A stretch of 64,000 nt of DNA from Candidatus Omnitrophota bacterium (GCA_024231025.1 JAAEQW010000274.1:1615-65614); one strand, 5' to 3'. Counted from the stretch's first letter, positions 7,960-41,246 are shown. A program made the numbers and translations. The notes: generated by a model from the sequence alone, not told the origin.

Positions 7960-7960
7960 A

Positions 7961-9978: not shown

Positions 9979-10926
9979 ATGAAAGCACTAAGAGATAATT
10001 GGTTAATTCAGATTGAAATTACAAATTCTTGTTTTTTGGAATGCGATAACTGCACCAGGTTCATCGGGCACCATAAAAAACCGTATTTCATGAAATTAGA
10101 AATGATAGAGCAGGCAATTGATTCCTTAGAAGGGTTTAAAGGTGGAATCGGCATTATGGGTGGTGAACCGCTAATGCACCCTGACTTTATTGACATTTGT
10201 AAACTTATACAAAAAAAAGTTCCTCGAGAAAAAAGGTATATTTGGACATCTGGATATAAGTGGAAACATTATCGCTCTATCGTCAGAAAAACTTTTGAAG
10301 AACGAGTATATTACAACGATCATCAGGGCAACGAGCAAAAGCACCAACCAGTGCTTATGGCCATCGAAGACTATTTAAAAGATAGACCTTTCATGAAAGA
10401 ACTAATTGATAAATGCTGGATTCAAGAAAAATGGTCGCCGTCAATTAACCCAAAAGGAGGATTCTTTTGCGAAGTTGCCGCAGCAATGGACATTTTGTTT
10501 GAAGGTCCAGGAGGCTACCCACTAGAAAAAGGATGGTGGGATAAAAGCCCTCAACAATTTCAAGATCAAGTAGAAAGATATTGCTACCGGTGCAGTGCTG
10601 CCTTACCCATGCCCCCAGTTTTTATCAAAAAAGGGATGGATTATGTTTCGTGCAGCAACTACAAACGTCTCAAAGATCTAAAAACGCCAAAATTCGTAAA
10701 AAATCGTGTTGAATGCGTTGAAAGAGAGTACACTAAAGCTCAAATTAATGATTATGCCAAAGATTGGCAGCCATGGTTATATTTGGGAGATGAGCCTCGA
10801 AAGAGTTTTTACGCAATGTACGGTCTTTTTGCGGGTTTTTTGGTAGCTTTTGGCAAAAAAGTTAGAAAAAGGCGAAATAAAATTAAAGAATGCCTTCACC
10901 CATCACAAAAACAATCACGCCCGTGA
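9979..10926 (+). CDS. Radical SAM domain protein.
   Basis: CxxxCxxC motif (CFLECDNC) at residues 18-25, a glycine-rich IGIMGGEP segment and additional C-terminal Cys pairs. Confidence 0.6.
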   Translation: MKALRDNWLIQIEITNSCFLECDNCTRFIGHHKKPYFMKLEMIEQAIDSLEGFKGGIGIMGGEPLMHPDFIDICKLIQKKVPREKRYIWTSGYKWKHYRSIVRKTFEERVYYNDHQGNEQKHQPVLMAIEDYLKDRPFMKELIDKCWIQEKWSPSINPKGGFFCEVAAAMDILFEGPGGYPLEKGWWDKSPQQFQDQVERYCYRCSAALPMPPVFIKKGMDYVSCSNYKRLKDLKTPKFVKNRVECVEREYTKAQINDYAKDWQPWLYLGDEPRKSFYAMYGLFAGFLVAFGKKVRKRRNKIKECLHPSQKQSRP

Positions 10927-11783
10927 AAATAGCCTTAATTTACAATAGAAACCAAAGAGTGAGAATGGGCGAGCGGTGTCAGAAAATATTAAAAAGCTAT
11001 CGACATCAAGAAATTTCACAATTTGATTTAAAGGAAGCCACCCAACTTACAAACGAATTTGACTTATATTTAAGAATTGATGACGGTTCTTACTCTGAAA
11101 GCATCCCCTCTCAATTGCATCCCTATGCTTGGTGGATATCCGATACCCATCTAAAAAAACCATTTAAAAGCATTGTCATCAACAGTCGAAATTGCGATCA
11201 TTTGTTTTGTTGCCAAAAACAAGGTGCTAAAAAATTATCCGCGATTATTAAAAAACAAGTTCACTGGCTTGCGGGAGCAGCTGACGAACTCCCTAATGAT
11301 TTTGAATTTAAATCCGATCGAGATAAAAAATGGGATATATGCTTTATTGGAACAAAAGGAAAATATAGCCTACGAAAAGTTATTTTAGAAAATTTGAAAA
11401 TAAATTATAAAAGCTTTCATATGGGGCGAGCCGAAATTGAAGAGTTAAGTGATTATTACTCTCACGGACGCATTACTGTTAATTATCCCATTAATAATGA
11501 TATTAATTTAAGATTTTTTGAAGCTATGAGCGCAGGCGCTCTAGTGATTACTCATCGAATCATAGATAATGGCTTTGAGGAAATCTTCCGCGACGGTAAG
11601 CATTTAATCGTTGTTGATGATATTTTTCAAGAGTTAAAAGAAAAAATAGATTATTATTTAAAAAATATTGAAGAACGAGAAAAGATTGCTAAAACCGCTT
11701 TTGAGTACATACACAGCCGTCATACTTATCGGCATCGTTTAATAGAAATGTTTAAAATTATGGGTTATAGTTTAGAGCAATGA
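10890..11783 (+). CDS. CgeB-like / DUF3880-type glycosyltransferase family protein.
   Basis: Motifs DICFIGTKG and FFEAMSAGALVIT are typical of CgeB/GT1-like proteins. The gene overlaps the radical SAM gene end by 37 nt. Confidence 0.5.
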   Translation: MPSPITKTITPVKIALIYNRNQRVRMGERCQKILKSYRHQEISQFDLKEATQLTNEFDLYLRIDDGSYSESIPSQLHPYAWWISDTHLKKPFKSIVINSRNCDHLFCCQKQGAKKLSAIIKKQVHWLAGAADELPNDFEFKSDRDKKWDICFIGTKGKYSLRKVILENLKINYKSFHMGRAEIEELSDYYSHGRITVNYPINNDINLRFFEAMSAGALVITHRIIDNGFEEIFRDGKHLIVVDDIFQELKEKIDYYLKNIEEREKIAKTAFEYIHSRHTYRHRLIEMFKIMGYSLEQ

Positions 11784-11938
11784 AAATAAAAATCTACCAC
11801 ATTTCCACTGGATTAGAATCAAAATTCAATCTTTTTTCAAAACCATGGTATTATCGTTCTAAATTTGAAAATTGGTCAATTTTTAGAGTATTTGGGATTT
11901 ATTTCTGGGTTTATCCTCGCCAACACACCCTGCCCTTT

Positions 11939-12682
11939 TTACTTTTCTACTGAAATACCTTTAGGGGTAATCTTGAGGCTTTTTATTGCTCGCCGCATCG
12001 ATGTTAGCGGCGGAATTGGCTTGCCATTAACTTCAACCATTACGGCTGAACCATCACCTATTTTAAATTCTATTTCTTCGGTGCCGCGCCAAGTTTCGAT
12101 AACGCCTTTTCTTAAAACACCTTGGAAAAGAAGTCTTCCGTCTACATTCGCACGTAAAAAACAATCTCTTTTTACGGTTAAAGAAACAACTATTTCTCCT
12201 GAATCAAAATCAGAAACCAATAAAGCTTTTGCTTGCGGTTTCGATTTCTGTGTTGGTATCGAGCTTTGAACCGATTTCTTTTGCGCCGATGAAACAGGTT
12301 TAGGTTTAGACGTAAATATTTTGCCAACACACCCAACCATCCCAATAAAAATACGCAAGACAATCAGTCCCACAACTACATATATAATTACTTTCTTACT
12401 ATAAGAAGGAATAACCGGGCCCTTTAAGCGAAGTTTTTTCTCTGGTGGTGTCTTTTTGGGTGCCGAGAGTTCCTCTAGCGCATTGCCTAAATCAATTCCC
12501 AAAAAACCAGCATATATTTTTATAAAACCTTTTAGATAAGCCGGACATATATTGGAAAAATCACCCGCTTCAATATCCCTAATTACTGAAGGATGCAGTT
12601 TCGTTTTATCAACGATATTTTCAGTACGAAGCCCCAGCGATTTTCTTTTCTCTTTTAATTTTACACATACTTCTTGTATCAT
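11939..12682 (-). CDS. rodZ: RodZ-like cytoskeleton protein: N-terminal XRE-type HTH, a TM segment and a C-terminal DUF4115-like domain.
   Basis: HTH (RKSLGLRTENIVDKTKLHPSVIRDIE), a single TM helix, a basic linker and a beta-rich C-terminal domain. Confidence 0.55.
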   Translation of the reverse strand: MIQEVCVKLKEKRKSLGLRTENIVDKTKLHPSVIRDIEAGDFSNICPAYLKGFIKIYAGFLGIDLGNALEELSAPKKTPPEKKLRLKGPVIPSYSKKVIIYVVVGLIVLRIFIGMVGCVGKIFTSKPKPVSSAQKKSVQSSIPTQKSKPQAKALLVSDFDSGEIVVSLTVKRDCFLRANVDGRLLFQGVLRKGVIETWRGTEEIEFKIGDGSAVMVEVNGKPIPPLTSMRRAIKSLKITPKGISVEK

Positions 12683-12683
12683 T

Positions 12684-14903
12684 TTATTCTATATTTTGTT
12701 CGGCAAAATACTGTTGAGAATCAACCAAAATCTCTCTCGCTTTACTGCCACAAAATTGACCAACGATTCCGGCCTGTTCCATTAAATCTAAGAGTCTCGC
12801 CGCACGAGTATACCCAACCCGCAAGCGACGCTGCAAGATTGATGCGGATGCCTGGTTGGCTGACAAAACAACTTTTACCGCATCATCGAAAAGTTCATCA
12901 CTTCCTACATCAAATTTTCTTCTCTTTTCGACTGTCTCGATTCCTTTTTCATAAACCGGCGCGCCCTGTTCCCTAATAAAAGTCGTCAAATTATCAATAT
13001 CTTCATCATCAATAAAAGCACCCTGGGCTCGAATAAGTTTTGTTGCCCCCGGTTTTAAAAATAAAAGATCTCCCTTGCCAAGAAGTTTCTCTGCACCCAT
13101 TATATCTAATACCGTGCGTGAATCAACCTTAGTTGCCACTTTAAATCCTATTCTTGCCGGAAAATTTGCCTTAATTATGCCAGTAATAACATCTACAGAT
13201 GGACGCTGAGTCGCTAAAACAAGGTGAATCCCAACAGCGCGAGATAGTTGCGCTAGGCGCTGGATTGAAGTTTCAACGCTTTCTCTGGCAACAATCATAA
13301 GATCAGCCAATTCATCAACGACAATAACAATAAAAGACATCCGGTCATTTTTACGACCTTTATTGTAACCGTCAATATTTCTCGCACCAGCTCCAGCTAG
13401 CCTTTTATAACGACGCTCCATTTCTTCTACCGCCCAGCTTAGGGCAACAAAGGCTTTTTTTGCATCTGAAATTATTGGGTGTATCAAGTGTGGAATACCG
13501 CTATAACAAGCAAGTTCAACCATTTTGGGATCAATCATAATAAATTTAACCTCATCGGGACGCGCTTTAAAAAGAATTGATGAAATTAAAGAATTAACAC
13601 ACACTGTTTTCCCTGATCCTGTTGCGCCAGCAATAAGAAGATGCGGCATTTCCTTAAGATTAGCGACAACCGGATTGCCAGACACATCTTTTCCAATTGC
13701 CATTGAAAGTTTTGATTCTGCTTTTTGAAAATTATCCTCTTCTAAAACTTCGCGCATTGAAACAAGGAGTTTCTTATCATTCGGTATTTCGACACCAATT
13801 GTTCCTCTCCCGGCAAGAGGGGCAACAATTCTCACCGAAGCCGCCTTCATTGCCAAGGCAATATCGTCGTGCAATGTAGAAATTTTCTGAATCTTCACCC
13901 CAGCATCAGGCTGCAATTCATACATCGTTACAACCGGACCTTTCTGCACGCTCACCACTTTTGCCTCTACTCCATAATTAGAAAGCGCTTTTTCAAGGTC
14001 TTTAATATTGGCTTCGATATTTTCTTTAGTGCCTTCGGCGTCTTGATGCTCAGGGATTTTTAAAATATCGATTGAAGGAAAACGATAAGTTCTTGGGTCG
14101 AACTGAACTCTATCAGGCTCTTCCAGAGCTTCTATTTTCTTTTTTGCCTCTTCCTGCGTTATAGGCAATGGCGATAGAGCAGCTTTCCTTTTTGTTTTTG
14201 CCAAATCCGGCTTCGAAGGTGTATAAACTTTTATTTCCGGCTTTATCGCTTGTTTTGGTTGTGGCTTTTTGATCTGTATTGGTGATAATGTTTTTTTCTG
14301 TTTAGATTTTACTGGTTTTTCAGATGCCGCTTCTCTTTCTTCTTTCCACTGCTCTATTGTATCCTGCAAATTCGTCCATAAGCGTTGAGTCATATGAAAT
14401 AGATCTACTAAAAACAAACCGAAAAGCAGGAGTGCTGTAATCGCCAAAAGAAAAGTTACAACAATTAAGGAACCGTAAAAATTGAGGTACTTAATAAAAA
14501 GACCGGCAATAAAAAACCCTGCCGCGCCTGATAAATCAAACATTGCGCTAGGTGTTTTTGCAAATATACCGATAAATGCGGAAAGAAATAATAAGAATAA
14601 AAGAAAGGAAATGAAATTAACCAATTTGCTCTTGCCCAGTCCAAAAAAACGAACCACGCCCAGCGCACTCCATCCCAAAAAGAAAAGATAGAATGGTAGA
14701 AAATAAGAGGCATACCCAAATAGAAAGAAAAGCGCAAAGCCAAGATAGGCACCAATCAATCCAATAAAATTATGTAAAACTTTTGGCGAAGGTTGAAAAA
14801 GAAAACTAATATCAGCTGGGGTATAAGAAAACAAACTTAAAAAAATTATCAAAGACAAACCGAAAAACACAGCGGTCTTTAAATAAGAAGATAAGTTTTT
14901 CAT
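12684..14903 (-). CDS. ftsK: DNA translocase FtsK.
   Basis: N-terminal multi-TM region, a proline/lysine-rich linker, a Walker A motif (GATGSGKT) and a C-terminal gamma domain. Confidence 0.9.
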   Translation of the reverse strand: MKNLSSYLKTAVFFGLSLIIFLSLFSYTPADISFLFQPSPKVLHNFIGLIGAYLGFALFFLFGYASYFLPFYLFFLGWSALGVVRFFGLGKSKLVNFISFLLFLLFLSAFIGIFAKTPSAMFDLSGAAGFFIAGLFIKYLNFYGSLIVVTFLLAITALLLFGLFLVDLFHMTQRLWTNLQDTIEQWKEEREAASEKPVKSKQKKTLSPIQIKKPQPKQAIKPEIKVYTPSKPDLAKTKRKAALSPLPITQEEAKKKIEALEEPDRVQFDPRTYRFPSIDILKIPEHQDAEGTKENIEANIKDLEKALSNYGVEAKVVSVQKGPVVTMYELQPDAGVKIQKISTLHDDIALAMKAASVRIVAPLAGRGTIGVEIPNDKKLLVSMREVLEEDNFQKAESKLSMAIGKDVSGNPVVANLKEMPHLLIAGATGSGKTVCVNSLISSILFKARPDEVKFIMIDPKMVELACYSGIPHLIHPIISDAKKAFVALSWAVEEMERRYKRLAGAGARNIDGYNKGRKNDRMSFIVIVVDELADLMIVARESVETSIQRLAQLSRAVGIHLVLATQRPSVDVITGIIKANFPARIGFKVATKVDSRTVLDIMGAEKLLGKGDLLFLKPGATKLIRAQGAFIDDEDIDNLTTFIREQGAPVYEKGIETVEKRRKFDVGSDELFDDAVKVVLSANQASASILQRRLRVGYTRAARLLDLMEQAGIVGQFCGSKAREILVDSQQYFAEQNIE

Positions 14904-26367: not shown

Positions 26368-26891
26368 ACATTCTGCCCAGACTTAACAGAAAAGATTACA
26401 TCTTTAAGGAAAGCTTTCTCAGCTAAAGCTAGCTTGTAATGATGATCTAACAAAAGAGTTAGGTTGCGGGGTGATCTTTTTAGCTCTTCTTTTTTTTCTA
26501 TCAACCATTCTTTTACTTTTTCTAAAAAACGTAGACGCAAACGCAAAAGAGGCATAATTTCTTTTTTATCTAAAAAGGGTAAAAAATATAACGCTATGTC
26601 CAGCTCAATAAATGGCCGCCGCTGAGAAAGAAAAGCCTGCTTGCAAAGACTTAAGAAGATTTTTTCTCCTTTTGGCGTAATCGAATAAAGATATTTTTTT
26701 ATATGCTTGGAACTTTTTGGCTCCTTCTTTTTGATTAACCCTTCTTTTTCCATCTTTCGCAACGGATAATATATAGATTGGGTTTCTGGTTTAGAAAAAA
26801 TACCCAGCTCTTGACTGATAAATTTCTTAATATCGTACCCGGAAGAGGGGTTCTTCTTTAAAAGACCTAGGATTATGAGATTTTGAATCAT
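26364..26891 (-). CDS. PadR family transcriptional regulator.
   Basis: SGYDIKKFI...YYPLRKMEKEGLI winged-helix motif. Confidence 0.6.
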   Translation of the reverse strand: MIQNLIILGLLKKNPSSGYDIKKFISQELGIFSKPETQSIYYPLRKMEKEGLIKKKEPKSSKHIKKYLYSITPKGEKIFLSLCKQAFLSQRRPFIELDIALYFLPFLDKKEIMPLLRLRLRFLEKVKEWLIEKKEELKRSPRNLTLLLDHHYKLALAEKAFLKDVIFSVKSGQNV

Positions 26892-27841
26892 TCTTGGAAA
26901 ACGCCCATTTTTCTAAATTTTTCATACCGCTGAGTGAGCATGTCTTCTGTGGATAACGATGAAACTTCATCTAAACTTTTAATTAAAGCTTTTTTCAAAT
27001 TATCAGCAGTTAATTCATAGTCACGATGAGCACCGCCTTGTGGTTCAGACACAACGCCATCAATAATGCCGAGTTTTAACAAATCAGAACCGGTAAGTTT
27101 TAGAACTTTTGCAGCTTCCTCTCTCATGGACGCATCTTTCCAAAGAATGGCCGCACACCCTTCCGGTGAAATAACTGAATAATACGCATACTCCATAAGC
27201 ATAACCCGATCACCTACGCCAATACCCAAAGCACCACCAGAACCCCCTTCGCCAATTATTGTAACAATTATCGGCGATTTTAAGGCAAACATATCTCTTA
27301 TGTTTTCGGCAATCGCCTGAGCCTGGCCTCTTTCTTCAGCGCCAATTCCAGGATATGCGCCAGGAGTATCAACCAAGCAAATGATCGGCATACCAAAACG
27401 CTCTCCCAACTGCATAATCCTCATTGCCTTACGATATCCCTCTGGATGGGCACAGCCAAAATTTCTTTCAATATTCTCTTTAGTGTCTCTACCCTTTTGA
27501 TGGCCAATAACAACAACTTTTCTACCATCAAGCTTGGCAAAACCACAGATAATGGCCTTATCATCGCCATAAAGTCTATCTCCATGCAAAAACACAAAAT
27601 CATCAGTGATTATATCTATATAGTCCTGTGTTGTTGGGCGCTTAGGATGACGAGAAATCTGAATTCTTTGCCAAGGAGTCAGCTTGGAATACACTTCTTT
27701 TTTTAGAATACTTAGCTTCTTATCTAAATTTTTTATTTCCGCAGAAAGATTAACACCTTTATCGCTAGAAAATTTTTTTAATTCTTCTATCTTATCTTCT
27801 AGCTCCACAACTGGTTTTTCAAAATCCCAACCTTGCATCAT
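26888..27841 (-). CDS. accA: Acetyl-CoA carboxylase carboxyltransferase alpha subunit.
   Basis: Full-length match to the AccA pattern (FEKPVVELE...GGSGGALGIGVGDRV). Confidence 0.9.
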   Translation of the reverse strand: MMQGWDFEKPVVELEDKIEELKKFSSDKGVNLSAEIKNLDKKLSILKKEVYSKLTPWQRIQISRHPKRPTTQDYIDIITDDFVFLHGDRLYGDDKAIICGFAKLDGRKVVVIGHQKGRDTKENIERNFGCAHPEGYRKAMRIMQLGERFGMPIICLVDTPGAYPGIGAEERGQAQAIAENIRDMFALKSPIIVTIIGEGGSGGALGIGVGDRVMLMEYAYYSVISPEGCAAILWKDASMREEAAKVLKLTGSDLLKLGIIDGVVSEPQGGAHRDYELTADNLKKALIKSLDEVSSLSTEDMLTQRYEKFRKMGVFQE

Positions 27842-27843
27842 AG

Positions 27844-28644
27844 TTAATCCACTACCGTTGCTTCTGTCCCTATTGGAACAATGTCATATAATTCTTCTAC
27901 TTCATCGTTGCGCATCCGCACACACCCCAAGGTAACTTGCTGCCCCAACATTTCTGGCTCTGTTGTGCCATGTATTCCATAACCTTTAATATCAAACCCG
28001 AGCCAACGCGAACCTAAAATATTTTCCGGACTATCCGGAGGAATAACCGCACCCGTTTTAAACCAAGTCGGACGAGAAAGTTTATTAACAATCTTGAAAG
28101 TTCCTATCGGGGTGCTATTGTTTTTTCCAGTTGATATAATATATGTTTTTATTACCTCTCCATCGCGTTTAAGAAAAAGTAAATTTTGCGACTTATCCAC
28201 CGCAACAGAAAAAGTTGAAGTTATCACTTTTAGTTTTTGTCCCGGTTTAATTATGTCGGATTCTAAGTGGTTTACTCTTTTGATCAACCCCACAGTTGTT
28301 CCATATTTTCTGGCAATTTTCGACAAGGCATCGTTAGGCCTAACAACATATTCTGTGCTTGCTTCGCCAACATTAGCCGAAAAAAGAAGCTGCATATTGA
28401 TTTCTTCTATTTTATTCTGCGCGTCTTTAAACTTTTTCGGATCGTTGATTTTTTCCAAAGCATTTTTATACATATCTTTTGCATCTGTGAGATTCCCCTC
28501 GGCAAGTTGATCGTCTGCTTTTTTTAATGAAAAACTCTTACGCACCGATGCTGACTTTTCGGTTTTTGACCCTCTAGACAATAAAACAACTACACCGACT
28601 AAAACCACAACTCCAATAATAATAAATATCTGTTGTTTTTTCAT
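27844..28644 (-). CDS. LysM-domain L,D-transpeptidase (YkuD family).
   Basis: Signal/TM segment, a LysM domain (YVVRPNDALSKIARKYG) and a catalytic HG...GCVRM motif. Confidence 0.8.
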   Translation of the reverse strand: MKKQQIFIIIGVVVLVGVVVLLSRGSKTEKSASVRKSFSLKKADDQLAEGNLTDAKDMYKNALEKINDPKKFKDAQNKIEEINMQLLFSANVGEASTEYVVRPNDALSKIARKYGTTVGLIKRVNHLESDIIKPGQKLKVITSTFSVAVDKSQNLLFLKRDGEVIKTYIISTGKNNSTPIGTFKIVNKLSRPTWFKTGAVIPPDSPENILGSRWLGFDIKGYGIHGTTEPEMLGQQVTLGCVRMRNDEVEELYDIVPIGTEATVVD

Positions 28645-28690
28645 GACAGCTCCTTGTTTACTCTGTTAAAGCCTAACGGTCTAACGGAGT

Positions 28691-29146
28691 TTATCTATAA
28701 AACATCATCGGAATGATTACTCCAATCAAAGCTCCAACAAAAACCTCAACGGGAGTATGCCCCACAAGCTCTTTGAGCTTGGTATCTTCGATTGCCCGAC
28801 CTTCCTGAATATCATCCATTATTCTATTAAGAATTTTTGCCTGCACTCCTATGGAACGACGCCAAGTTTGCGCATCAAACATAGTTACTAGAGCAAAAAT
28901 GCAAGCTAAAGCAAAAAATGGCGAAGAAAATCCAAGTTCTGCACCAAGACAAACAGCTAAGGCCGTTACAGCCGAACTATGAGAAGAGGGCATCCCTCCT
29001 GTGCCTAAAAGCCAAGAAAAATTAAACCTTTTTTCTTTAATGACCCCTCGAACAATCTTAGCACCTTGAGCAATCACCCAACTCAAAAATGAAACCCAAA
29101 TAACCTTATTTTTAAATATTTCCGACCAAAAATCACTCATATTCAC
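28691..29146 (-). CDS. Divergent PAP2 (DUF212) family membrane protein.
   Basis: GGMPSSHSSAVTAL motif. Confidence 0.55.
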   Translation of the reverse strand: MNMSDFWSEIFKNKVIWVSFLSWVIAQGAKIVRGVIKEKRFNFSWLLGTGGMPSSHSSAVTALAVCLGAELGFSSPFFALACIFALVTMFDAQTWRRSIGVQAKILNRIMDDIQEGRAIEDTKLKELVGHTPVEVFVGALIGVIIPMMFYR

Positions 29147-32579: not shown

Positions 32580-32852
32580 TTAACTAAATTTGTAATGTTT
32601 TTTTACTTTTTTCTTTACAATCCATTTGCAGCTCAAACCCTGTGGAAATGAAACAAAGTCTCCTTTGCAAATTTTTACAGATTCGTTGTCGGTTTGGACA
32701 ACTACTTCACCTTCCAAAAAAAGACACTCTTCTTTTTGGTCGTAATGCCAATCAAACGTGCTTTCTTCTTTTTGCCAAATTGGCCAATTGTTTATTCCTA
32801 ACTGAGCAACTTCCTCATCCGTTAATTTTTTAATTTCAATTTTTTCACTCAT
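32580..32852 (-). CDS. Small cupin-domain protein.
   Basis: 90 aa beta-rich protein with a cupin-like pattern. Confidence 0.45.
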   Translation of the reverse strand: MSEKIEIKKLTDEEVAQLGINNWPIWQKEESTFDWHYDQKEECLFLEGEVVVQTDNESVKICKGDFVSFPQGLSCKWIVKKKVKKHYKFS

Positions 32853-33610
32853 TAGACCCTCCCTTTTAAATATTGTAGTCTCAATTTTTCAGGAAATTTT
32901 TCAATCGCATACCGTAACATAACTCTTGGCATAGTTTTGTAATGCCGCTTAAGAAATTCCTCTTCCTTAAGCTTATCTCTTTTGCCCACTTCACGCAACA
33001 TCCATCCGCATGCTTTATGAATTAAATCATGTTTATCCGATAGTAGTATTTTAGCAATTTTTAACGTATCTTCAAATTTATTATTTCTAATAAAAGAAAG
33101 AGTTGCGACAATCGAAACCCTTCTTTGCCATAAGCTCTTTGATCTAGCCAACTTATAGAGTGTTCTTTTATCTTTATCTTTTAAAAAATCACCAACAATA
33201 TTAGGCGCACTTAAATCAACTAGGTCCCAATTGTTTATAAACTTAGTGTTATTTAGATATACTTTGAATATTTTTTCTCTTTGAGAAATATTTCCCTTAT
33301 TATACTTCATAATGAAGATCAAAAGAGCCAACAAACGTTCTTCGTGAATGGGTGATTTTAAAATCTCAAGTGTTTCGCTTAAGCTTAAATCTTGATTGCG
33401 CTTGGCAACACTGCGAGTTTGCGGAACCTTAACCCCTAAAAAAATATCACCTTCTCCATATTGACCCGGACCGGTTTTAAAGAAGTTTTGTAGAATTTTG
33501 GCCTTTTGCTTGCTAGAGTGTCTTTTTAACTCTCTTTTAACTTTTGCTGCCTTAACCGACAACGCCTCATCTTGCTTCGTCGATAATTTTAGGCTTTTGG
33601 AAGAACTCAT
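32852..33610 (-). CDS. DNA alkylation repair protein (AlkC/AlkD-like HEAT-repeat glycosylase family).
   Basis: Motifs FFKTGPGQYGEGDIFLGVKVP, NNWDLVD and ACGWMLRE. Confidence 0.7.
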   Translation of the reverse strand: MSSSKSLKLSTKQDEALSVKAAKVKRELKRHSSKQKAKILQNFFKTGPGQYGEGDIFLGVKVPQTRSVAKRNQDLSLSETLEILKSPIHEERLLALLIFIMKYNKGNISQREKIFKVYLNNTKFINNWDLVDLSAPNIVGDFLKDKDKRTLYKLARSKSLWQRRVSIVATLSFIRNNKFEDTLKIAKILLSDKHDLIHKACGWMLREVGKRDKLKEEEFLKRHYKTMPRVMLRYAIEKFPEKLRLQYLKGRV

Positions 33611-33887
33611 CTTTGTGTTTTACCCCCTTACAGGCATAGAAAAAAATAATTGCCGCCTCTCTGTACAATTGCCCACAATAACTCAAGCTTTGTAATACAG
33701 CTTGTTTAACGTGACTGGTATAACTTTTAATTTTTGTTTCTTGAAAACAGAGGAAAATAATGAAAACTATCAAAAAAATAAATCGCATCGACACACGACG
33801 GAAAACTTTTGTTCTCTTTTTTTGATAACACTGTTGACAAAGATGACCTTTGGCAACTTCCTTAAAACATTCAACACAATGTCTCAT
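33567..33887 (-). CDS. Hypothetical small protein with an N-terminal zinc ribbon (CxxC...CxxC) and a TM helix. It may be spurious.
   Basis: The ORF overlaps the AlkD-like start by 44 nt. It has no family assignment. Confidence 0.25.
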   Translation of the reverse strand: MRHCVECFKEVAKGHLCQQCYQKKRTKVFRRVSMRFIFLIVFIIFLCFQETKIKSYTSHVKQAVLQSLSYCGQLYREAAIIFFYACKGVKHKDEFFQKPKIIDEAR

Positions 33888-33943
33888 ATTAAGCGATGTT
33901 TAAAGAAATAAATAGCGCGACTCGATTGAACTGATAATGCTCT

Positions 33944-34155
33944 AATGCTCTATTTTTCGCTCAAAGAGCGAAAAATGGCGGCGAATGCTCAATGAGGCAA
34001 CGGTTTTCAAGTCGCAGACGCTGAAAACTGTGTAGCCGAATTAATCCCGATAAGCGAGTCACACGAGCTGTATCGGGAGACTTGTTGAGCTCCTCAATAT
34101 TACCTATAAAGCGAAATCCGCCTCTGGCGGGAACCACCGACAAAACGGGTATGAG
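33944..34155 (-). repeat. Partial duplicate of tRNA-Met(CAT). It shares 41 nt (the acceptor 3' strand plus the downstream hairpin) and 25 nt (anticodon loop to T-stem) with the intact tRNA, split by a 146-nt unrelated insert. It is a putative att-site remnant.
   Basis: Positions 33944-33984 equal 37360-37400 exactly. Positions 34131-34155 equal 37409-37433 exactly. The 8 nt GTGGACTT of the tRNA are replaced by 146 nt, and no cloverleaf can be folded. Confidence 0.6.
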
Positions 34156-34240
34156 GCTCGTACCTCGCCCATCCAAATAACTATTATTACACAAAAAACC
34201 CATATTGTAGATTAATTTTCCGTTACGCCTTCACCTTCTT

Positions 34241-34861
34241 TTAAATTATCTTGTCCTTGCTCGCACGTATTCTAATAACATTTTCGGATACTTTAAATTT
34301 ATCTGGCAATAAAAATCTGAATATGACTTTTTTAATCCCATCAGAATTATCGTCATACTTAAACTCACATATATCTTCTGCTTCTTTAATCGCCTTATAA
34401 AACTCTTTTTTAAAAACTTTCCGAGGAACTAACACCAAACCAGCAAAGTTGTCAGCTTGTCGTTCAAGCATATCTCTTTTTTCTACTGACATATCTTGAA
34501 TCAATTTTTTCCACTCGTCTCTACTTTCAAACGTAAACTCCTGATACATATAAGAGTGCAAAAACATATGCCCTATTTCATGTGCTAAACTAAAACGTAA
34601 TCTGTTTGGGCGTTGATGATAAATAAACTCATCAACGGAAATGCTACTAAAATCATTAGCAATAAAAGCATCTATATCCAACCCCGCCCTCGAAAATGAA
34701 TTTTTCAAATCAGGAAGTGGAATAATATCTATTTTTAATTTATTGTCTAAAATTTCCTCTATATCAACAAAGATAGAGAAATCTGGGCTGTAACTTGCTA
34801 AAAAACTTTCAGCAACAGCATTTATTTCATCGTAGGTTTTGAAGATGGGTTCGAATTGCAT
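34241..34861 (-). CDS. ImmA/IrrE family metallopeptidase (DUF955).
   Basis: HEIGHMFLH motif. Its stop is 5 nt from the upstream XRE gene, giving the classic XRE-ImmA pair. Confidence 0.8.
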   Translation of the reverse strand: MQFEPIFKTYDEINAVAESFLASYSPDFSIFVDIEEILDNKLKIDIIPLPDLKNSFSRAGLDIDAFIANDFSSISVDEFIYHQRPNRLRFSLAHEIGHMFLHSYMYQEFTFESRDEWKKLIQDMSVEKRDMLERQADNFAGLVLVPRKVFKKEFYKAIKEAEDICEFKYDDNSDGIKKVIFRFLLPDKFKVSENVIRIRASKDKII

Positions 34862-34866
34862 TCAGT

Positions 34867-35232
34867 CTAAGATTCTTTTATCCTATCAATCAGCTCATCA
34901 AGCTCTTTCTCGGATAACTTTTTATCTTTTAATGTTCTGAAAAATACTGGCAGGCGAGACATTAGCTCCTCTTCCTTTTGTACATCAGTAGGAATTTTCC
35001 CCGCATCAACTGACGCAAAATCCATGAATGCTTGCCAATCATCGCTACCTTTTTTGATTTCTAAAAAAGTAGCTAATTCTTCAAGCCTTTCTTCAGACTG
35101 CGGCGGAGACATTTTCCCCCGTTCAATCTTGCTTATATTCCCAGCATCCAATTCATGTTCCAAGCAAAATTGACGCAATGTCTTCCCTAAAGATATCCTT
35201 TTTTCTTTAAAAAATTCTCCGAAACTACCCAT
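34867..35232 (-). CDS. XRE-family HTH transcriptional regulator.
   Basis: The residues KRISLGKTLRQFCLEHELDAGNISKIERGK form an HTH. Confidence 0.8.
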   Translation of the reverse strand: MGSFGEFFKEKRISLGKTLRQFCLEHELDAGNISKIERGKMSPPQSEERLEELATFLEIKKGSDDWQAFMDFASVDAGKIPTDVQKEEELMSRLPVFFRTLKDKKLSEKELDELIDRIKES

Positions 35233-35539
35233 ATTAAACCTCCCCCACTAAGGTTTATGTGTTGTAATATACTTACAACTCCCAATTAGAGTGTACCATA
35301 ATTGTAAAAAAAATACAACCTTGTTCAAGTCCATTCCATATACATTATTACTTCTATATCTCTCATAATATCAATGTGTTACAGCAAAAATATAATTTAA
35401 TTTCCAACAATATCTTAATGCCACTCTAAATTCACTCAAAATAAACAAATAAACGACCGTTTTTAGTTTCCTAATTCTTACCATAATATCGCCCATTTTG
35501 CTTGCCTAAGAGCCTGCGGAAACTAAGGACTTGTCGAAA

Positions 35540-35663
35540 AAGCTGGAATAGATTACAAATACTACCAAAGGATAGAAGGTAAAAACCCTCCGAACTTAAA
35601 ACTAGAAGCTATCGAATCTCTCTGCAAAGCTTTTAAGATCAAACCTACGAAAATACTTGAATA
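35540..35663 (+). pseudogene. Relic of an XRE-family HTH gene: a C-terminal fragment with no start codon and an in-frame stop immediately upstream.
   Basis: Translates to ...LSKKAGIDYKYYQRIEGKNPPNLKLEAIESLCKAFKIKPTKILE*, with TAA directly 5' of the fragment. Confidence 0.45.
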
Positions 35664-35759
35664 AAAACTCGCCAAAGGCTTTAAAACAAAACTATCTAAG
35701 CTTTTAGATATTAAATAATAAGATTCTTTAGCGGCATTTAAGCGATCTGAATATATTAA

Positions 35760-36782
35760 CTAAGGCAATAATCTTCTATTTACAGCTATTAGCTTGCTTA
35801 CTTCCTTTGAATCAACATCAAAATGATGACCTGATTTTATTGGAATCAATACCCCATTAAAATTATTACAAAATTTCACTAAATATGTCTTGAGATTAAA
35901 GATGCTCACCCTGCTAATTAAGCTTGTGCCTTTCCATCCCAAAATAATAAGGTGACCATTTGTAACTTTTATATTTTGACTTTGCAGTTTTCTATCAATA
36001 TCAAGAATAGGTGGTTCGTTGACACCGAAATACTCTTTGCTATCTCCTTCACCAAATCTTATAAATTTCCTAATTCCGTCAAATTCTTCTCTCAAAGCGA
36101 ATTTTTTCCCGACTATGCATGCTAAATAATTAAAAGCTATCTTGCATATCCCTCTATATACCACAGAATCAATTTTTATAATACCTTCGACTAATGTTTG
36201 ATTCCTCTTTTTAACTTCCTCTGGCCACTCTAAATCTTCTTCGGGTTTAATATTCATCCCTTTATCGCTAAACACTCTTAATAGACTTTGCATTTCATTA
36301 TCGTCTTTTGCTATTAAAGGAATTTTCTTATCTTTAATCTCGTACCCTTTACTTGTTAATTCTTTCGCATGGGGTATATCATTCGGCTCAAAATAATCAT
36401 ATTCTTGTGTTTGCTTATTGAAAAACCCTGCTTGTAATACAGGGTCTATATCATTTTCTCCTTGCACTCCAGAGTACCTTGGTATAACTATCATCCCTTT
36501 CAACTCTCCACAAGGTATCTTAAATTTCAATCTCTTATGCTTCTTCGGATTTTCTCTTGGTTTAATGCCATGGATATATCTAACAACTCCCTCGATGGTG
36601 TCCCTGCCTAAGTATAGCTCTATATTATTTCCAAAAAACTGGTTACACTCATCACAGACGCTTTTATAAAGTAAAAGATTACCGGGAGTAAATTTACCGA
36701 AGCATTGAGGAATAACATGCTCTCGCTTGCTAAATTCTTCTTCTGCCTTATCTTTAGAGCAATAAATACACTTTTCCTTCAT
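35760..36782 (-). CDS. HNH (His-Me finger) nuclease-domain protein with a 290-aa C-terminal domain of unknown function. A candidate defence/abortive-infection effector.
   Basis: N-terminal CIYC...EHVIPQCFG...CDECN, the HNH_5-type pattern. The rest has no recognisable motifs. The gene lies inside a tRNA-flanked island next to XRE/ImmA. Confidence 0.6.
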   Translation of the reverse strand: MKEKCIYCSKDKAEEEFSKREHVIPQCFGKFTPGNLLLYKSVCDECNQFFGNNIELYLGRDTIEGVVRYIHGIKPRENPKKHKRLKFKIPCGELKGMIVIPRYSGVQGENDIDPVLQAGFFNKQTQEYDYFEPNDIPHAKELTSKGYEIKDKKIPLIAKDDNEMQSLLRVFSDKGMNIKPEEDLEWPEEVKKRNQTLVEGIIKIDSVVYRGICKIAFNYLACIVGKKFALREEFDGIRKFIRFGEGDSKEYFGVNEPPILDIDRKLQSQNIKVTNGHLIILGWKGTSLISRVSIFNLKTYLVKFCNNFNGVLIPIKSGHHFDVDSKEVSKLIAVNRRLLP

Positions 36783-36924
36783 AATATCCTTATTATAGCT
36801 CTGGAATAGACTTTTCGTATTAAATATTCAACGAATGCCTCTCAACCGCATTTTTTAGCTGTTTGTCCTTACAACCTAAGTAGCATCTGGTTTGAAGAAA
36901 AGAGTCTAGTGCGAGGTTATTTAC

Positions 36925-37281
36925 TTACTGTTTCTTATTGATCAAACCGGAGAGCATTTTGCAAATAGTTTCTAGGTTTTGCAAAAGAGTCTGGCAAACT
37001 GCCGCATCAACTAAATTTTCCCGTTTGCAGATTTCTAAAATAGGTACGCATTCAAAGGCGGAGCCGCGAGCAATCCGAAAGAATGATTGCCTTTCTTTAA
37101 GGTGATATCTGCCATTGCCTTCGGCAATGTTTAAAGAAACAGAAAGAGCGGCGCGGTTGAATTGATCGATGATATGATAGTTACCTTTGGGGAAGCTCTT
37201 CGTAAGCTTAGATACTTGACAATAAAAGTCTATGGCTTTATTGTAAACGTCTAATTTTTCAAGCATGAAAGCCATAATCAC
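36925..37281 (-). CDS. Four-helix-bundle protein (23S rRNA intervening-sequence protein family, TIGR02436-like).
   Basis: NIAEGNGRY and ARGSAFE signature motifs, in a 118 aa protein. Confidence 0.7.
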   Translation of the reverse strand: MIMAFMLEKLDVYNKAIDFYCQVSKLTKSFPKGNYHIIDQFNRAALSVSLNIAEGNGRYHLKERQSFFRIARGSAFECVPILEICKRENLVDAAVCQTLLQNLETICKMLSGLINKKQ

Positions 37282-37289
37282 CAGACATT

Positions 37290-37350
37290 GAACATTTGAT
37301 CATTGGAACATTTGACCACATTGTCGCATTCCTCTAATGTTCAAATGCTC
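37290..37350. promoter_or_regulatory. Repeated GAACATTTGA motifs (two direct and one inverted) immediately upstream of the four-helix-bundle gene. A putative operator or arm-type binding site.
   Basis: attGAACATTTGAtcattgGAACATTTGAcc...ctaATGTTCAAATGctc. Confidence 0.35.
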
Positions 37351-37391
37351 GAATGCTCCAATGCTCTATTTTTCGCTCAAAGAGCGAAAAA

Positions 37392-37465
37392 TGGCGGCGA
37401 GTGGACTTGAACCACCGACAAAACGGGTATGAGCCGTTTGCTCTACCAGCCTGAGCTACGCCGCC
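37392..37465 (-). tRNA. tRNA-Met (anticodon CAT, elongator or Ile-lysidine type), 74 nt with no encoded CCA.
   Basis: Manual cloverleaf: acceptor GGCGGCG/CGCCGCC, D arm GCTC-AGGCTGGTA-GAGC, anticodon arm AACGG-CTCATAC-CCGTT and T arm GGTGG-TTCAAGT-CCACT, with discriminator A followed by a hairpin. Confidence 0.85.
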
Positions 37466-37539: not shown

Positions 37540-37848
37540 TTAAAAATGAAAATCCTTAACAATCACCCATAAAAGCGCAACGATAACCCCTGAACAAATA
37601 ACATAAAAATCATAAAAATAGAAAAACTCTCTTAAGCGTTCCCGATTGTGATGCTTTCCGGCAGGAAGATTATATTTTTTTTTAATATCTTCTTTCATCT
37701 TGAGAATATCTTTTCTTTTGAAACGAAGATATTCTCCTGCCATTTTAAAATGCGGCAAAAGATCGCTATTCGCTAAATCAATTACATCCTTTTCGGGTAT
37801 TCCCAATATCCGGGAAACTTCACGCGTAGTAAGAAGTTTTTCTTCCAT
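37540..37848 (-). CDS. Excisionase-type HTH DNA-binding protein with a C-terminal TM helix.
   Basis: N-terminal LTTREVSRILGIPEKDVIDLANSDLLPHF (HTH_17-like) and C-terminal FYVICSGVIVALLWVIV. Confidence 0.5.
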   Translation of the reverse strand: MEEKLLTTREVSRILGIPEKDVIDLANSDLLPHFKMAGEYLRFKRKDILKMKEDIKKKYNLPAGKHHNRERLREFFYFYDFYVICSGVIVALLWVIVKDFHF

Positions 37849-37862
37849 GACAATTTACTCGT

Positions 37863-38375
37863 TTAACTATTTTGGCTAAGCCAGGTTTCTACTTCCTTGT
37901 GATCAAATAAAAGATTTGAGCCCGACTTTTCTGCCGGAATCGCTCCAGTTCCGACCCACTCCATAATTTTACTCTCGCCTACCGAAAGATAGTCAGATAG
38001 CTCTTCTATTGACATTTTTACTTGAGCCATTCTGCAATTTCCGTTTAGCACTGCCCCTTTATCAACGGCAAGCCGGGGAGTTTCAATGTTTCCAACTACC
38101 TCAGCTGTTGACCCTAGTTCAACTAAACGACTAGCTTTAATGTCGCCTTTTACTATACCGGCAATGGCTATGTTTTCGCCGATAATATCTGCTGTTACGG
38201 TAGCGTTTTTACCGATAATCAAATTCCCTTTTGTTGTTAAATCTCCATCAAACTTTCCACTTATGCGTAAATTTACAGGGTCAGAAAAAACTAAGCTTCC
38301 CCTCATTGCTGCAGTAACGTCAAGAAACTTCACTTCATCACTTTTTTTGTCTTCCCTTTTCTTCATCACAACCAC
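37863..38375 (-). CDS. Bactofilin-domain protein fused to a C-terminal excisionase-type HTH DNA-binding domain.
   Basis: Bactofilin beta-helix repeats (ISGKFDGDLTTKGNLIIGKNATVTADIIGENIAIAGIVKGDI...) followed by MSIEELSDYLSVGESKIMEWVGTGAIPAEK. Confidence 0.6.
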   Translation of the reverse strand: MVVMKKREDKKSDEVKFLDVTAAMRGSLVFSDPVNLRISGKFDGDLTTKGNLIIGKNATVTADIIGENIAIAGIVKGDIKASRLVELGSTAEVVGNIETPRLAVDKGAVLNGNCRMAQVKMSIEELSDYLSVGESKIMEWVGTGAIPAEKSGSNLLFDHKEVETWLSQNS

Positions 38376-38420
38376 CCCCTGTTACAAATGCACCAAACGG
38401 TGCGCCATTATATAAATACA

Positions 38421-38858
38421 TTAGTTACTTTTATTATGTGCTTTTTCTTCGGCACGTTTTACATACGAAAGAGTAACGTAGGCAATGATTGTTGCAAATA
38501 AAGCGCCACTTATATACCCGCAACCAGCAGCCAAACCGATTGCCGCGTTTATCCAAACGCTTCCAGCTGTGGTTAACCCTCTAATTCCTTGAGGGTTCCT
38601 TATAATCGTACCTGCGCCTAAAAATCCAATACCCGTTACAACCCCCGCAGCAATCCTGCCAGGATCAATTTGTGCTATATCTTGATAAGCTTGGAAAACA
38701 TATATTGACACCAGCATTATAAGAGCCGAGCCAACGCAAACTAAAATATGCGTACGAAGCCCAGGGTGTTTTCCTCTTTTTTCCCGTTCTAATCCAATTA
38801 CCCCACCAAAAACAAAAGCCAGCGATAATCGCACTATCGTATCAAACAAACTTAACAT
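38421..38858 (-). CDS. MgtC/SapB family membrane protein.
   Basis: FVFGGVIGLEREKRGKHPGLRTHILV motif. Confidence 0.75.
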   Translation of the reverse strand: MLSLFDTIVRLSLAFVFGGVIGLEREKRGKHPGLRTHILVCVGSALIMLVSIYVFQAYQDIAQIDPGRIAAGVVTGIGFLGAGTIIRNPQGIRGLTTAGSVWINAAIGLAAGCGYISGALFATIIAYVTLSYVKRAEEKAHNKSN

Positions 38859-39844
38859 TAACTTGCCTCCGCTTTTAAACTCAGGTTACTTTTTATCCCC
38901 TTATTATACAAATAAAATCCTATTCCTGCAACCATTGCGGCATTATCAGTAGAATAGGTCAAAGGAGCGGCAAAAAGCCTTATTTTACGCTCTTTTTGCG
39001 CGCTTAATCGCGCTCGCAAAAAGCTATTTGCAATAACCCCGCCACCGCAAACCACTCGGTTTATACCAGTCTTAATTGACGCATCAACTACAGTTTGAAC
39101 AATTGCTTCAACCACTGTAGCTTGAAAAGCAGAAATCAGACCAATTTTGCTTTTTCTATCAAGTAACTTTTTCTTTTCAAGCTCGATCTGTTTATAAATA
39201 ACTGCTGTTTTTATTCCACTAAAACTTAAATCAAGACCAATCTTACCACATTTAAATTTAAATTCATCTTTTCGCTTGGCATCAAATAATTTATCAATTA
39301 TCGGCCCGCCAGGATAACCCAACCCCAAACTTCTTCCAATTTTATCAAAAACTTCTCCGCAAGCATCATCTCGAGTTTGCCCTATAATTTTCATTTTATT
39401 AAAATCATCTACACGATAAATTTCAGTATGCCCACCAGACACAACCAATCCCAAAAAGGGAAACTTAATTTTAGCAGGATAATTCAAGAAAGGTGCAAAA
39501 AGGTGTGCGTGCAAATGATTCACTCCAATAAGCGGTTTGCCCAACGCTAAAGATAATGCCTTAGCAAAATTGATTCCAACAACTAACGATCCGATTAATC
39601 CGGGCTTATGCGTTACGGCAATTACACTTATCCTATGCAATGAGATTTTTGCCTCGCTTAAAGCTGCGTTAAAAACCTTATCGATATTCTTAAGATGCGC
39701 GCGAGTGGCAATTTCCGGAATAATTCCTCCATATTTCTTATGCTGGCGCAAAGAAGATATAGTTACATTGCTTAAGACTTTATAATTTTTCAAAACAGCG
39801 CAAGACGTTTCGTCGCAAGATGTTTCTATTCCTAAAGTATACAT
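38858..39844 (-). CDS. tsaD: tRNA N6-adenosine threonylcarbamoyltransferase TsaD (Kae1/Gcp).
   Basis: MYTLGIETSCDETSCAV N-terminus and HxxAH metal motifs. The start was chosen at the internal M; the track ORF extends to 39904. Confidence 0.85.
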   Translation of the reverse strand: MYTLGIETSCDETSCAVLKNYKVLSNVTISSLRQHKKYGGIIPEIATRAHLKNIDKVFNAALSEAKISLHRISVIAVTHKPGLIGSLVVGINFAKALSLALGKPLIGVNHLHAHLFAPFLNYPAKIKFPFLGLVVSGGHTEIYRVDDFNKMKIIGQTRDDACGEVFDKIGRSLGLGYPGGPIIDKLFDAKRKDEFKFKCGKIGLDLSFSGIKTAVIYKQIELEKKKLLDRKSKIGLISAFQATVVEAIVQTVVDASIKTGINRVVCGGGVIANSFLRARLSAQKERKIRLFAAPLTYSTDNAAMVAGIGFYLYNKGIKSNLSLKAEAS

Positions 39845-39858
39845 CTTAAAATTCAAAA

Positions 39859-39982
39859 CAACCAAGAAACAAGATACAATAACCAAATAAGCTCCAATCA
39901 TCAAATCCCAATAACCAGATTTTTTGATTATTGAATATTGGAAATTGGTTATTATTTGTATCTTGCATCTTGGTTATTGGTT
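39859..39982. repeat. Second long imperfect AT-rich palindrome (TTGGTTATT/AATAACCAA arms), intergenic between tsaD and ctp.
   Basis: The left arm ...CAACCAAGAAACAAGATACAATAACC is approximately the reverse complement of the right arm GGTTATTATTTGTATCTTGCATCTTGGTT. Confidence 0.45.
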
Positions 39983-39989
39983 ATTTAGT

Positions 39990-41246
39990 TTACCTGTTGC
40001 TACCCAAAACAACTAAGCCTTTAATTAAGTCGACTGCCCTTGTTATTTGATAATCTTTTTTGTAATCAAATTCTTTCTTAGGTTCTTCGCCAGATTCCTG
40101 ATTTTCTACTTTTTCAAAAACGTCTTTTTCTTTTTTTTCAATTTCTTTTTCCTCAATAATTTTAAGCTCTACTTCAACATCAGGATCAATTCCCTTTTCA
40201 TGAATGCTTGTTCCATTTGGCGTATAGTATTTTGAGGTTGTAAGCCGAAGTGCGGAGCCATCAGAAAGCGGCAATATTGTTTGAACCGAACCTTTACCAA
40301 AAGTTGTTTCTCCTAAAAGAATACCTCTTTTATTTTCACGAAGTGCAGCGGCAAGAATTTCACTACCCGAAGCGCTCCCCTTGTTAATTAGAATAACTAT
40401 TGGAATATCTAAATATTTTTCTTTGATTGGTGAGGTTTTATACACCTTTTCTTTTTGTTCTCTTGTCTTAGTTGATACAACGGTTTTACCATTTTCCAAA
40501 AATCTGCTGGTTACTTCAATCGCTGAATAAAGTAAGCCGCCGGGATTATTTCTAACGTCAATTATCAACCCCTTAAGGCCTTCTGCCTTAAGCTTGCGCA
40601 ATGCTTTATCTAAATCGTTTGTTGTGGTTTCTCTAAACTCAGCTATTCTTAAATAACCGATGCCATCTTCTAGGATCATCGCTCGCTTGATATCCTTTAT
40701 TTTTATTATACCCCTAGTAACAGTCACTTCTTCTAGGCTCTTAGTTTTATCTTTTAGAAGCACTAAATCAACATTCGTTTCAGGCTCACCGCGCAACTTC
40801 TTTACTGCTTCGTTTAAGGTAATGCCTTTTGTTAGCTCACCGTCAATCTTAACAATAATATCACCCGCTTCTAATCCGGCCCGCCAAGCAGGAGTGTCCT
40901 CGATCGGAGTAACTATCGTTAAAAATCGTTCCTTTATTGTTATCTCTATTCCTAATCCGCCAAATTGACCTTCTGTTTCAACAAGTAAATCCTTGTAATC
41001 TTCAGGCGTAAGAAATTGACTATATGAATCAAGCGATGAAAGTAAACCCTCCATCGCGCCATAAATCAGATCTTGTGCAGTTTTATCTTCAACGTGTTTT
41101 TTCTCGATTACTGATAATCCTTCGGCAAAAAGATCAAGTTCCTTATAAAACTCTTCTCTTTCATTGCCCAAAGAATACCCCACCCAATAAGAAGAAAACG
41201 AAGTTAATACAAGGATTATAACAATCGCGGTGATTTTCTTTTTCAT
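39990..41246 (-). CDS. ctp: Carboxyl-terminal processing protease (S41 family, PDZ domain).
   Basis: PDZ domain (GDIIVKIDG), catalytic GSASGSEI and an N-terminal signal anchor. Confidence 0.85.
   Translation of the reverse strand: MKKKITAIVIILVLTSFSSYWVGYSLGNEREEFYKELDLFAEGLSVIEKKHVEDKTAQDLIYGAMEGLLSSLDSYSQFLTPEDYKDLLVETEGQFGGLGIEITIKERFLTIVTPIEDTPAWRAGLEAGDIIVKIDGELTKGITLNEAVKKLRGEPETNVDLVLLKDKTKSLEEVTVTRGIIKIKDIKRAMILEDGIGYLRIAEFRETTTNDLDKALRKLKAEGLKGLIIDVRNNPGGLLYSAIEVTSRFLENGKTVVSTKTREQKEKVYKTSPIKEKYLDIPIVILINKGSASGSEILAAALRENKRGILLGETTFGKGSVQTILPLSDGSALRLTTSKYYTPNGTSIHEKGIDPDVEVELKIIEEKEIEKKEKDVFEKVENQESGEEPKKEFDYKKDYQITRAVDLIKGLVVLGSNR

Follow-up and report, generated by a model that had tools for sequence, protein, structure and literature searches.

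Integration of mobile DNA into transfer RNA (tRNA) genes, followed by decay of the inserted element, is textbook biology, and a further instance is therefore unsurprising in itself. To our knowledge, the mobile elements of the Omnitrophota, a mostly uncultured group, have hardly been described. Here we analyse a 64,000-nucleotide (nt) stretch of DNA from a Candidatus Omnitrophota bacterium (GCA_024231025.1 JAAEQW010000274.1:1615-65614), referred to below as the window, with positions counted from its first letter. Within it lies a small gene islet bordered on one side by an intact tRNA-Met gene and on the other by a displaced copy of the 3' part of that gene. A preliminary description made from the sequence alone had taken this islet for a fossilised island, integrated at the tRNA 3' end and still holding candidate defence cargo. 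In our analysis the segment 33936-37433 is probably what decay has left of a small element that had integrated site-specifically into the tRNA-Met(CAT) gene of an Omnitrophota genome, and its contents are better described without the word defence.

The intact tRNA-Met gene (anticodon CAT) occupies 37392-37465 on the minus strand, as called by ARAGORN and by Rfam (RF00005, 63.8 bits), and its 3' part, from nt 32 of the tRNA onwards, forms the proximal of two repeat copies. The two exact repeats reported earlier, one of 41 nt (33944-33984 = 37360-37400) and one of 25 nt (34131-34155 = 37409-37433), were both recovered by repeat search and blastn, and dinucleotide-preserving shuffles of the window give a chance expectation of 0 for either block. 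Placed on the Rfam alignment, the 25-nt block corresponds to tRNA nt 32-56: it opens with the base that begins the anticodon loop and reaches into the T-loop. The longer block widens to 52 nt with 2 mismatches (33936-33987 vs 37352-37403, 96% by blastn). It had been presented as the acceptor strand plus a downstream hairpin; both are present, but the tRNA accounts for only ~12 nt (nt 62-73, one mismatch), and the remainder consists of the hairpin and two 8-nt tandem units (NAATGCTC).

Together the two blocks make up a single displaced 3' part of tRNA-Met with ~40 nt of the sequence downstream of it. The proximal, attL-like copy (37352-37433, minus strand), delimited by direct repeats, blastn and inverted-repeat search, comprises tRNA nt 32-73, a hairpin with an 11-bp stem (37368-37392) and the two 8-nt units. 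The distal copy is in two pieces on the same strand: an attR-like block A (33936-33987; tRNA nt 62-73, hairpin at 33952-33976, two 8-nt units), identical to the proximal copy at 50 of 52 positions, and a block B (34131-34155; tRNA nt 32-56), identical at 25 of 25. Overall, 75 of 77 positions agree between the distal and proximal copies. The homology to be expected of an attachment (att) site is thus one composite block of ~82-95 nt, interrupted by an insert, and not the two separate marks of the preliminary description, whose reading of the repeats as attL and attR of a tRNA-site integration is otherwise supported by the relatives described below.

The hairpin (ATTTTTCGCTC-AAA-GAGCGAAAAAT) occurs twice in the 64-kb window, both times at the repeats, and the acceptor-strand plus hairpin sequence has no exact match among the metagenome contigs of JGI, so that it is not a shared terminator within the data searched; the common-terminator reading was rejected for the window on the count of two. 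IMG/VR likewise contains no exact match to the 25-nt tRNA block. Between the hairpin and the start of the neighbouring IVS-family gene run two arrays of 8-nt period (37287-37369, on neither strand in particular), GAACATTN at 37290-37318 and NAATGYTC at 37332-37363, which are mutually inverted (32-nt arms, 78% complementary). Comparable tandem repeats of 7-8 nt are seen in the intergenic DNA of relatives, at ~4915-4980 and ~3680-3715 of locus L020 and at ~1060-1085 of locus L029.

What splits the displaced copy is a GC-rich, strongly structured insert of 143 nt (33988-34130, unstranded), which stands in its T-loop in place of tRNA nt 57-61. Its GC content is 0.486, against 0.344 for the islet. 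The plus strand folds far more stably than shuffled sequence (z = -3.66), with the minimum free energy structure equal to the centroid, and so does a 245-nt region on the minus strand (z = -2.9). The insert is single-copy in the window and in all fetched loci; a 32-nt piece of it has no exact match in IMG/VR, and Rfam returned no match for the displaced copy and insert, even when 381 nt were searched with permissive settings. An open reading frame (ORF) of 80 amino acids (aa) across the insert belongs to no Pfam family and was set aside as showing no visible integrase remnant. The first 13 nt of the insert (CCGCCAGAGGCGG, then T-rich) score as terminator-like on the minus strand.

On its outer side the distal repeat abuts a fragment of an IVS-family gene (33892-33935, minus strand), identified by blastn, tblastn and translation. 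It is the distal part of a third block of homology, absent from the preliminary description, in which 33893-33935 matches 37124-37166 within the intact IVS gene at 79% over 43 nt (blastn). In frame the fragment reads QFNRVALFISLNIA, then a stop, where the intact protein has QFNRAALSVSLNIAEG; 11 of 14 residues are identical (tblastn). The two ends of the islet accordingly share the tRNA half, the hairpin, the 8-mers and IVS gene sequence, with identity falling from 97-100% to 79%. From sequence comparison, this suggests that the incoming element bore a flank related to the chromosomal flank. Between the IVS fragment and the AlkD gene, and overlapping the predicted AlkD start, there is a putative 106-aa ORF with CxxC...CxxC motifs (33567-33887), for which no family match was found.

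The intact genes between the repeats all lie on the minus strand, and profile matches and translations bear out the cargo named earlier: an XRE-ImmA/IrrE pair, a decayed XRE gene, an HNH protein and an IVS protein. Nearest the tRNA is the IVS or Avd-like four-helix-bundle protein of 118 aa (36925-37281; PF05635 3.1e-29; TIGR02436 6e-28; phrog_3206 'Avd protein of DGR' 4e-6), which is well above the curated cut-offs (101.8 vs 33.8 bits for PF05635, 97.2 vs 24 for TIGR02436) and whose gene is not within an rRNA gene. It is followed by an HNH_5 protein of 340 aa (35760-36782; PF14279 7e-13), with an N-terminal nuclease domain and a conserved C-terminal part of ~280 aa. A Cro/C1-type XRE gene on the plus strand (35490-35664), divergent from the XRE-ImmA operon, is decayed: its translations show it to be frameshifted and truncated, with the C-terminal 45 codons intact (PF13443 HTH_26, 6e-4) and an N-terminal remnant in another frame.

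The islet is completed by an intact XRE-family helix-turn-helix (HTH) repressor of 121 aa (34867-35232; HTH_19/HTH_3; PADLOC capH 6e-5) and an ImmA/IrrE-type M78 metallopeptidase of 206 aa with an intact HEIGH motif (34241-34861; PF06114 1.4e-12; PADLOC capP 7.6e-16). The repressor is 72% identical over its full length to a homologue in locus L029 and 61% to one in locus L026, and homologues of the peptidase also span its full length. The XRE gene is followed by the peptidase gene after a gap of 5 nt, the arrangement of an ImmR/ImmA-type pair. An XRE repressor with an ImmA metallopeptidase is the kind of switch that governs how prophages and integrative and conjugative elements (ICEs) are induced.

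ORF listing and Pfam scans turned up no integrase among the ORFs of the islet or among integrase-sized ORFs in the ~17 kb to each side of it, and tblastn with the integrase of the L026 element gave no match across the 64-kb window; in this respect the preliminary description was right. Equally, ORFs and profile scans revealed no excisionase, relaxase or replication gene between the repeats. A diversity-generating retroelement (DGR) was considered and rejected: an Avd-like bundle is present, but the ORFs of 30-41.5 kb include no reverse transcriptase and the repeat search found no pair resembling template and variable repeats, so that the islet is not a DGR. In composition the islet (GC 0.344 vs 0.375 for the window) is among the lowest-GC 3-kb segments (z ~ -2.1), and its tetranucleotide distance stands at the 96.7th percentile within the window.

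Relatives of the locus were obtained by a metagenome scan with the 25-nt block, which brought up 12 loci with a tRNA-Met of the same sequence throughout its 74 nt. The islet stands on a conserved backbone (26888-29140 and 37540-41246) that carries AccA, YkuD/LysM and p149 genes downstream of the tRNA and HTH_17, bactofilin-HTH, MgtC, TsaD and Ctp genes upstream. Locus L020 is syntenic with the window for the upstream genes Ctp, TsaD, MgtC, bactofilin-HTH and HTH_17 (56-69% amino-acid identity); its tRNA-Met is followed by ~210 nt and then by a cupin gene (63% identity), and no IVS, HNH, XRE, ImmA or AlkD gene is present. The empty arrangement expected earlier, with tRNA-Met leading directly to the cupin gene, thus exists in a relative, but L020 is distant, and AlkD (32852-33610), which is absent from it, does not belong to the conserved flank of the empty site. 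The predicted N-terminus of AlkD is ~18 aa longer than those of its homologues. Between HTH_17 and tRNA-Met, L020 has larB- and larC-like genes, which the window lacks. Two further ways of seeking an empty site gave nothing: a scan of genome contigs with TsaD produced a single distant Chlorobiaceae match without synteny, and the nearest homologues of AlkD, 65% identical, have unrelated neighbours and no tRNA.

Six loci (L009, L012, L014, L015, L016 and L019) share p149, YkuD/LysM and AccA downstream, at 57-77% identity. Against these shared genes, the stretch that separates tRNA-Met from p149 measures 0.67 kb in L015, 0.93 kb in L009 and 2.5 kb in L012 and L019; in L016 it is 4.2 kb, and in the window it amounts to 8.25 kb. 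This marks the interval as a variable region on a conserved backbone. In L012 and L019, tRNA-Met is separated by a single PNPOx gene (0.64 kb) from a contiguous displaced copy of tRNA nt 30-74 (91%), and the sequence after the displaced copy is the one that follows the intact tRNA in L009, which has no PNPOx gene at this place. This PNPOx islet (L019 2834-3549; L012 3917-4632; empty site L009 2103-2499) also lacks an integrase and, like the islet of the window, has its repeat boundary at the anticodon loop. L012 and L019 with L009 form a clean occupied/empty pair, independent of the islet in the window. In L016 the place of the L012/L019-type displaced copy is taken by 1.8 kb of other DNA, from which it follows that such tRNA-Met sites are reused.

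Intact elements with the same regulatory module are found in other Omnitrophota. In loci L026-L028 a 6.4-kb element at tRNA-Lys opens with XRE (61%) and ImmA (46-47%) genes and continues with small ORFs, closing with genes for an HTH_17 excisionase and a tyrosine integrase. In L026 the element (7116-13611) lies upstream of tRNA-Lys(CTT) and is flanked by a 38-nt exact repeat of the tRNA 5' half, nt 1-38, which ends in the anticodon loop. A second element of ~9 kb, on a 612-kb contig, has XRE, ImmA (47%), cargo, AAA_25, Terminase_2, HTH_17 and integrase genes; the L026 element, the one of the two whose flanks were readable, is the one with tRNA repeats. Elements of this kind therefore exist in Omnitrophota and use anticodon-loop sites of tRNA genes.

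Integrases that target tRNA genes are known to cross over at one of three sublocations, the anticodon loop, the T-loop or the 3' end; att sites that begin at the anticodon loop and extend to the 3' end form an established class, and some islands retain nothing but their repeats (bioRxiv 10.1101/2020.11.02.365908). At our locus, direct repeats of part of a tRNA occur together with the intact tRNA, as expected of a tRNA-targeting element, although an integrase is missing. The repeat boundaries fall in the anticodon loop at nt 32 in the window and at nt 30 in L019, while the L026 repeat ends at nt 38. Presence of the islet is also variable at a conserved locus, as judged from distant relatives (50-77% amino-acid identity).

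We therefore favour a history in which an element with a tyrosine integrase would have recombined within the anticodon loop of tRNA-Met. The element would have supplied its own copy of tRNA nt 32-73 and of the downstream hairpin, now the proximal copy (37352-37433), so that tRNA-Met stayed intact, and the native 3' part would have been displaced 3.3 kb downstream, where it now forms the distal copy with its flank (33936-34155). Integrase, excisionase and replication genes would subsequently have been lost, and one of the two XRE genes would have decayed, while the XRE-ImmA switch and the HNH and IVS genes stayed intact and may still be active. Later, the displaced copy would have received 143 nt of foreign structured DNA in its T-loop, possibly the last piece of a second element: as the T-loop is itself a crossover sublocation, these 143 nt may be the remnant of an accreted element.

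Several observations weigh against integration and have kept our confidence short of certainty. No recombinase is present, so integration has to be read from its scars alone. The homology between the islet ends does not stop with the distal repeat; it reaches past it into the IVS fragment at 79%, something not expected of a simple att core. The comparators, at 50-77% amino-acid identity, are all distant, none of them offers an isogenic, same-species empty site, and the window comes from a metagenome-assembled contig, in which joins at repeats are uncheckable here. The compositional anomaly anticipated by the preliminary description is modest, and the adjoining AlkD and cupin genes are as GC-poor as the islet, so that composition lends weak support. 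In the intact elements the XRE-ImmA pair is transcribed inward from the element end; in the window it is the 3' end of ImmA that abuts the distal repeat. Finally, locus L029 (Ga0310045_10024543, 1-3145) has XRE (72%) and ImmA (63%) genes convergent to LarC, HTH_17 and bactofilin-HTH genes that are only 50-58% identical to those of the window; the pair is thus more conserved than its neighbours, and the 117-nt spacer contains no tRNA. The XRE-ImmA pair may accordingly be a long-term resident of this neighbourhood, or related elements may have struck there repeatedly; the L029 contig is too short to choose between repeated insertion and old residency.

The most viable of the other accounts is a variant of integration and not an alternative to it. 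In tandem accretion, an older element using the T-loop or 3' end would have left the 52-nt block and the 143 nt, and a younger one using the anticodon loop would have left the 25-nt block and the cargo. Accretion of decayed elements at a single att site is known (PMC5704250). The T-loop, into which the 143 nt fall exactly, is the second of the recognised crossover sublocations, and the replacement of an L019-type displaced copy by 1.8 kb in L016 shows that the site is reused. Against this, two elements require an additional deletion that on one side stops exactly at tRNA nt 56/57, the younger element must still have brought a hairpin, as the proximal and distal hairpins are identical, and no coding or family match connects the 143 nt with any element. 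We consider accretion possible, although a single integration accounts for the locus with better odds.

The next account concerns the cargo and is compatible with integration. It holds that the islet is a resident, working stress-induced or defence module, in which XRE-ImmA would respond to DNA damage by relieving repression of the HNH nuclease, along the lines of CapH/CapP, with the repeats as old scars. The XRE, ImmA and HNH genes are indeed intact and full-length with conserved catalytic residues, and XRE-ImmA is retained in the same neighbourhood in L029. The HNH_5 family itself is sizeable: 253 homologues come from several phyla, and nearly all of the 120 listed are full-length. The protein in the window keeps every family-invariant residue (the CxxC...CxxC zinc site, H22, N35 and N47), and its AF2 model reaches a mean confidence (pLDDT) of 89.5. 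The C-terminal part has conserved GH and GHH motifs, which could, on the strength of this conservation, form a predicted second active site; its ~280 aa have no structural relative in PDB or BFVD. The neighbours of HNH_5 genes vary by genome: in the three contexts examined there are SLFN_AlbA_2 genes in two and a conjugative-type region in one, surroundings that could suit a defence role.

The link between nuclease and switch is less persuasive. XRE-ImmA was found in none of the three HNH_5 contexts, and an HNH_5 gene in none of the five ImmA contexts examined. PADLOC, which had been proposed as a check on the defence cargo, matched only the regulators (capP 7.6e-16, capH 6e-5). These two scores speak for the module, but the capP profile was covered only at positions 6-124 of 242 by a peptidase of 206 aa, and a complete CapP also has a GAF domain at its C-terminus; the HNH protein had no significant match (PtuB 0.0063, no matched stretch) and the IVS protein none at all. 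In CapH/CapP systems the operon under control is found upstream of the regulator pair, on the other strand, and has its promoter region in common with that pair. Here the divergent gene is the frameshifted XRE and the HNH gene lies upstream on the same strand, and a CapH/CapP architecture was rejected on this orientation. A resident module of this kind is consequently unlikely. The HNH_5 protein appears, from its domain and its neighbourhoods, to represent an uncharacterised family of predicted nucleases typical of mobile DNA, and 'defence cargo' is a label, not a finding.

Less probable again is an origin by segmental duplication, or by homologous exchange with a related strain, of a module made up of tRNA 3' half, hairpin and IVS gene, with the cargo coming to lie between the copies. 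It would explain why homology of the ends continues past tRNA and hairpin into the IVS fragment outside the distal repeat. The copies are of unlike age, however, with 97-100% identity in tRNA and hairpin against 79% in the IVS fragment; this drop rules out duplication at a single age, and a uniform tandem duplication was rejected on the same grounds. Moreover, the boundary lies in the anticodon loop in the window, in L019 and in L026, and three such boundaries are unlikely to have come from random duplication breakpoints.

A broader proposal is that tRNA-Met in this Omnitrophota lineage is a hot spot for cassettes, at which short integrase-less islets with copies of the tRNA 3' half at their borders, such as that of the window and the PNPOx islet of L012 and L019, would be inserted and exchanged by integrases acting in trans, and that HNH_5 would be a new single-gene nuclease effector under the damage-sensing control of XRE/ImmA; we grant this combination only a slight chance. 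That the displaced tRNA part and its insert constitute a functional tRNA-derived non-coding RNA hardly deserves credence, for although the region is GC-rich and both strands fold beyond shuffles, it matches nothing in Rfam, none of the fetched loci has a homologue of it, and the absence of the tRNA 5' half makes a tRNA-like fold impossible for the displaced part.

With integration by a single small element as the preferred reading, the interest of the locus lies less in the event than in its setting. Small elements with XRE-ImmA, excisionase and integrase genes, together with integrase-less remnants, probably shape the variable interval after tRNA-Met in Omnitrophota. The large, conserved family of 340-aa HNH_5 proteins could merit testing as nucleases of mobile elements or of defence. 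Three residual curiosities are the structured 143-nt insert, the fact that integrase-less islets recur at one tRNA, and the HNH_5 family itself.

Among the closest known systems are the intact Omnitrophota elements described above. The window shares with the L026-L028 and ~9-kb elements a homologous XRE-ImmA module, and with L026 a tRNA-derived repeat that has its boundary in the anticodon loop; those elements differ in having kept an HTH_17 excisionase and a tyrosine integrase, and in having no HNH_5 or IVS gene. The wider class of tRNA-targeting islands resembles the islet in that the repeat is the tRNA 3' part from the anticodon loop onwards, the tRNA has been made whole again, and the inserted DNA lies downstream and has a lower GC content. 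Unlike those islands, the islet has no integrase, its 3.4 kb is at the lower size limit and its repeat runs ~40 nt past the tRNA.

For the regulatory pair, the points of comparison are ImmR/ImmA of ICEBs1 and phage phi105, CapH/CapP and DdrO/IrrE, all of which pair adjacent, co-directional genes for an XRE HTH protein and an M78 HEXXH peptidase, as here. ImmR/ImmA-type pairs also have a divergent Cro-like gene, which in the window is dead; unlike ImmR/ImmA, the window has no int gene downstream of immA. CapH/CapP differ further in their divergent effector operon, which is absent here, and the window peptidase is short (206 aa) and corresponds to the N-terminal half of capP only. By gene order and domain content the pair thus appears to belong with ImmR/ImmA-type switches rather than with CapH/CapP defence regulators.

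[quoted passage not shown] As in a CIME, att-like direct repeats are found on both sides at the 3' end of the target gene, and there are signs of reuse or accretion at the site, in the T-loop insert here and in L016 compared with L019. Both attL and attR are retained, with the distal copy interrupted by 143 nt in its T-loop; this interrupted copy may no longer work as a site. The differences lie in the host, here Omnitrophota, and in the target, tRNA-Met. Because both att-like repeats are kept and no recombinase remains, the definition of a CIME fits, and for want of an integrase the segment is best filed as a decayed CIME-type remnant derived from a tRNA-targeting integrative element, which could now be mobile only with an integrase supplied in trans, or be lost by homologous recombination between its repeats.

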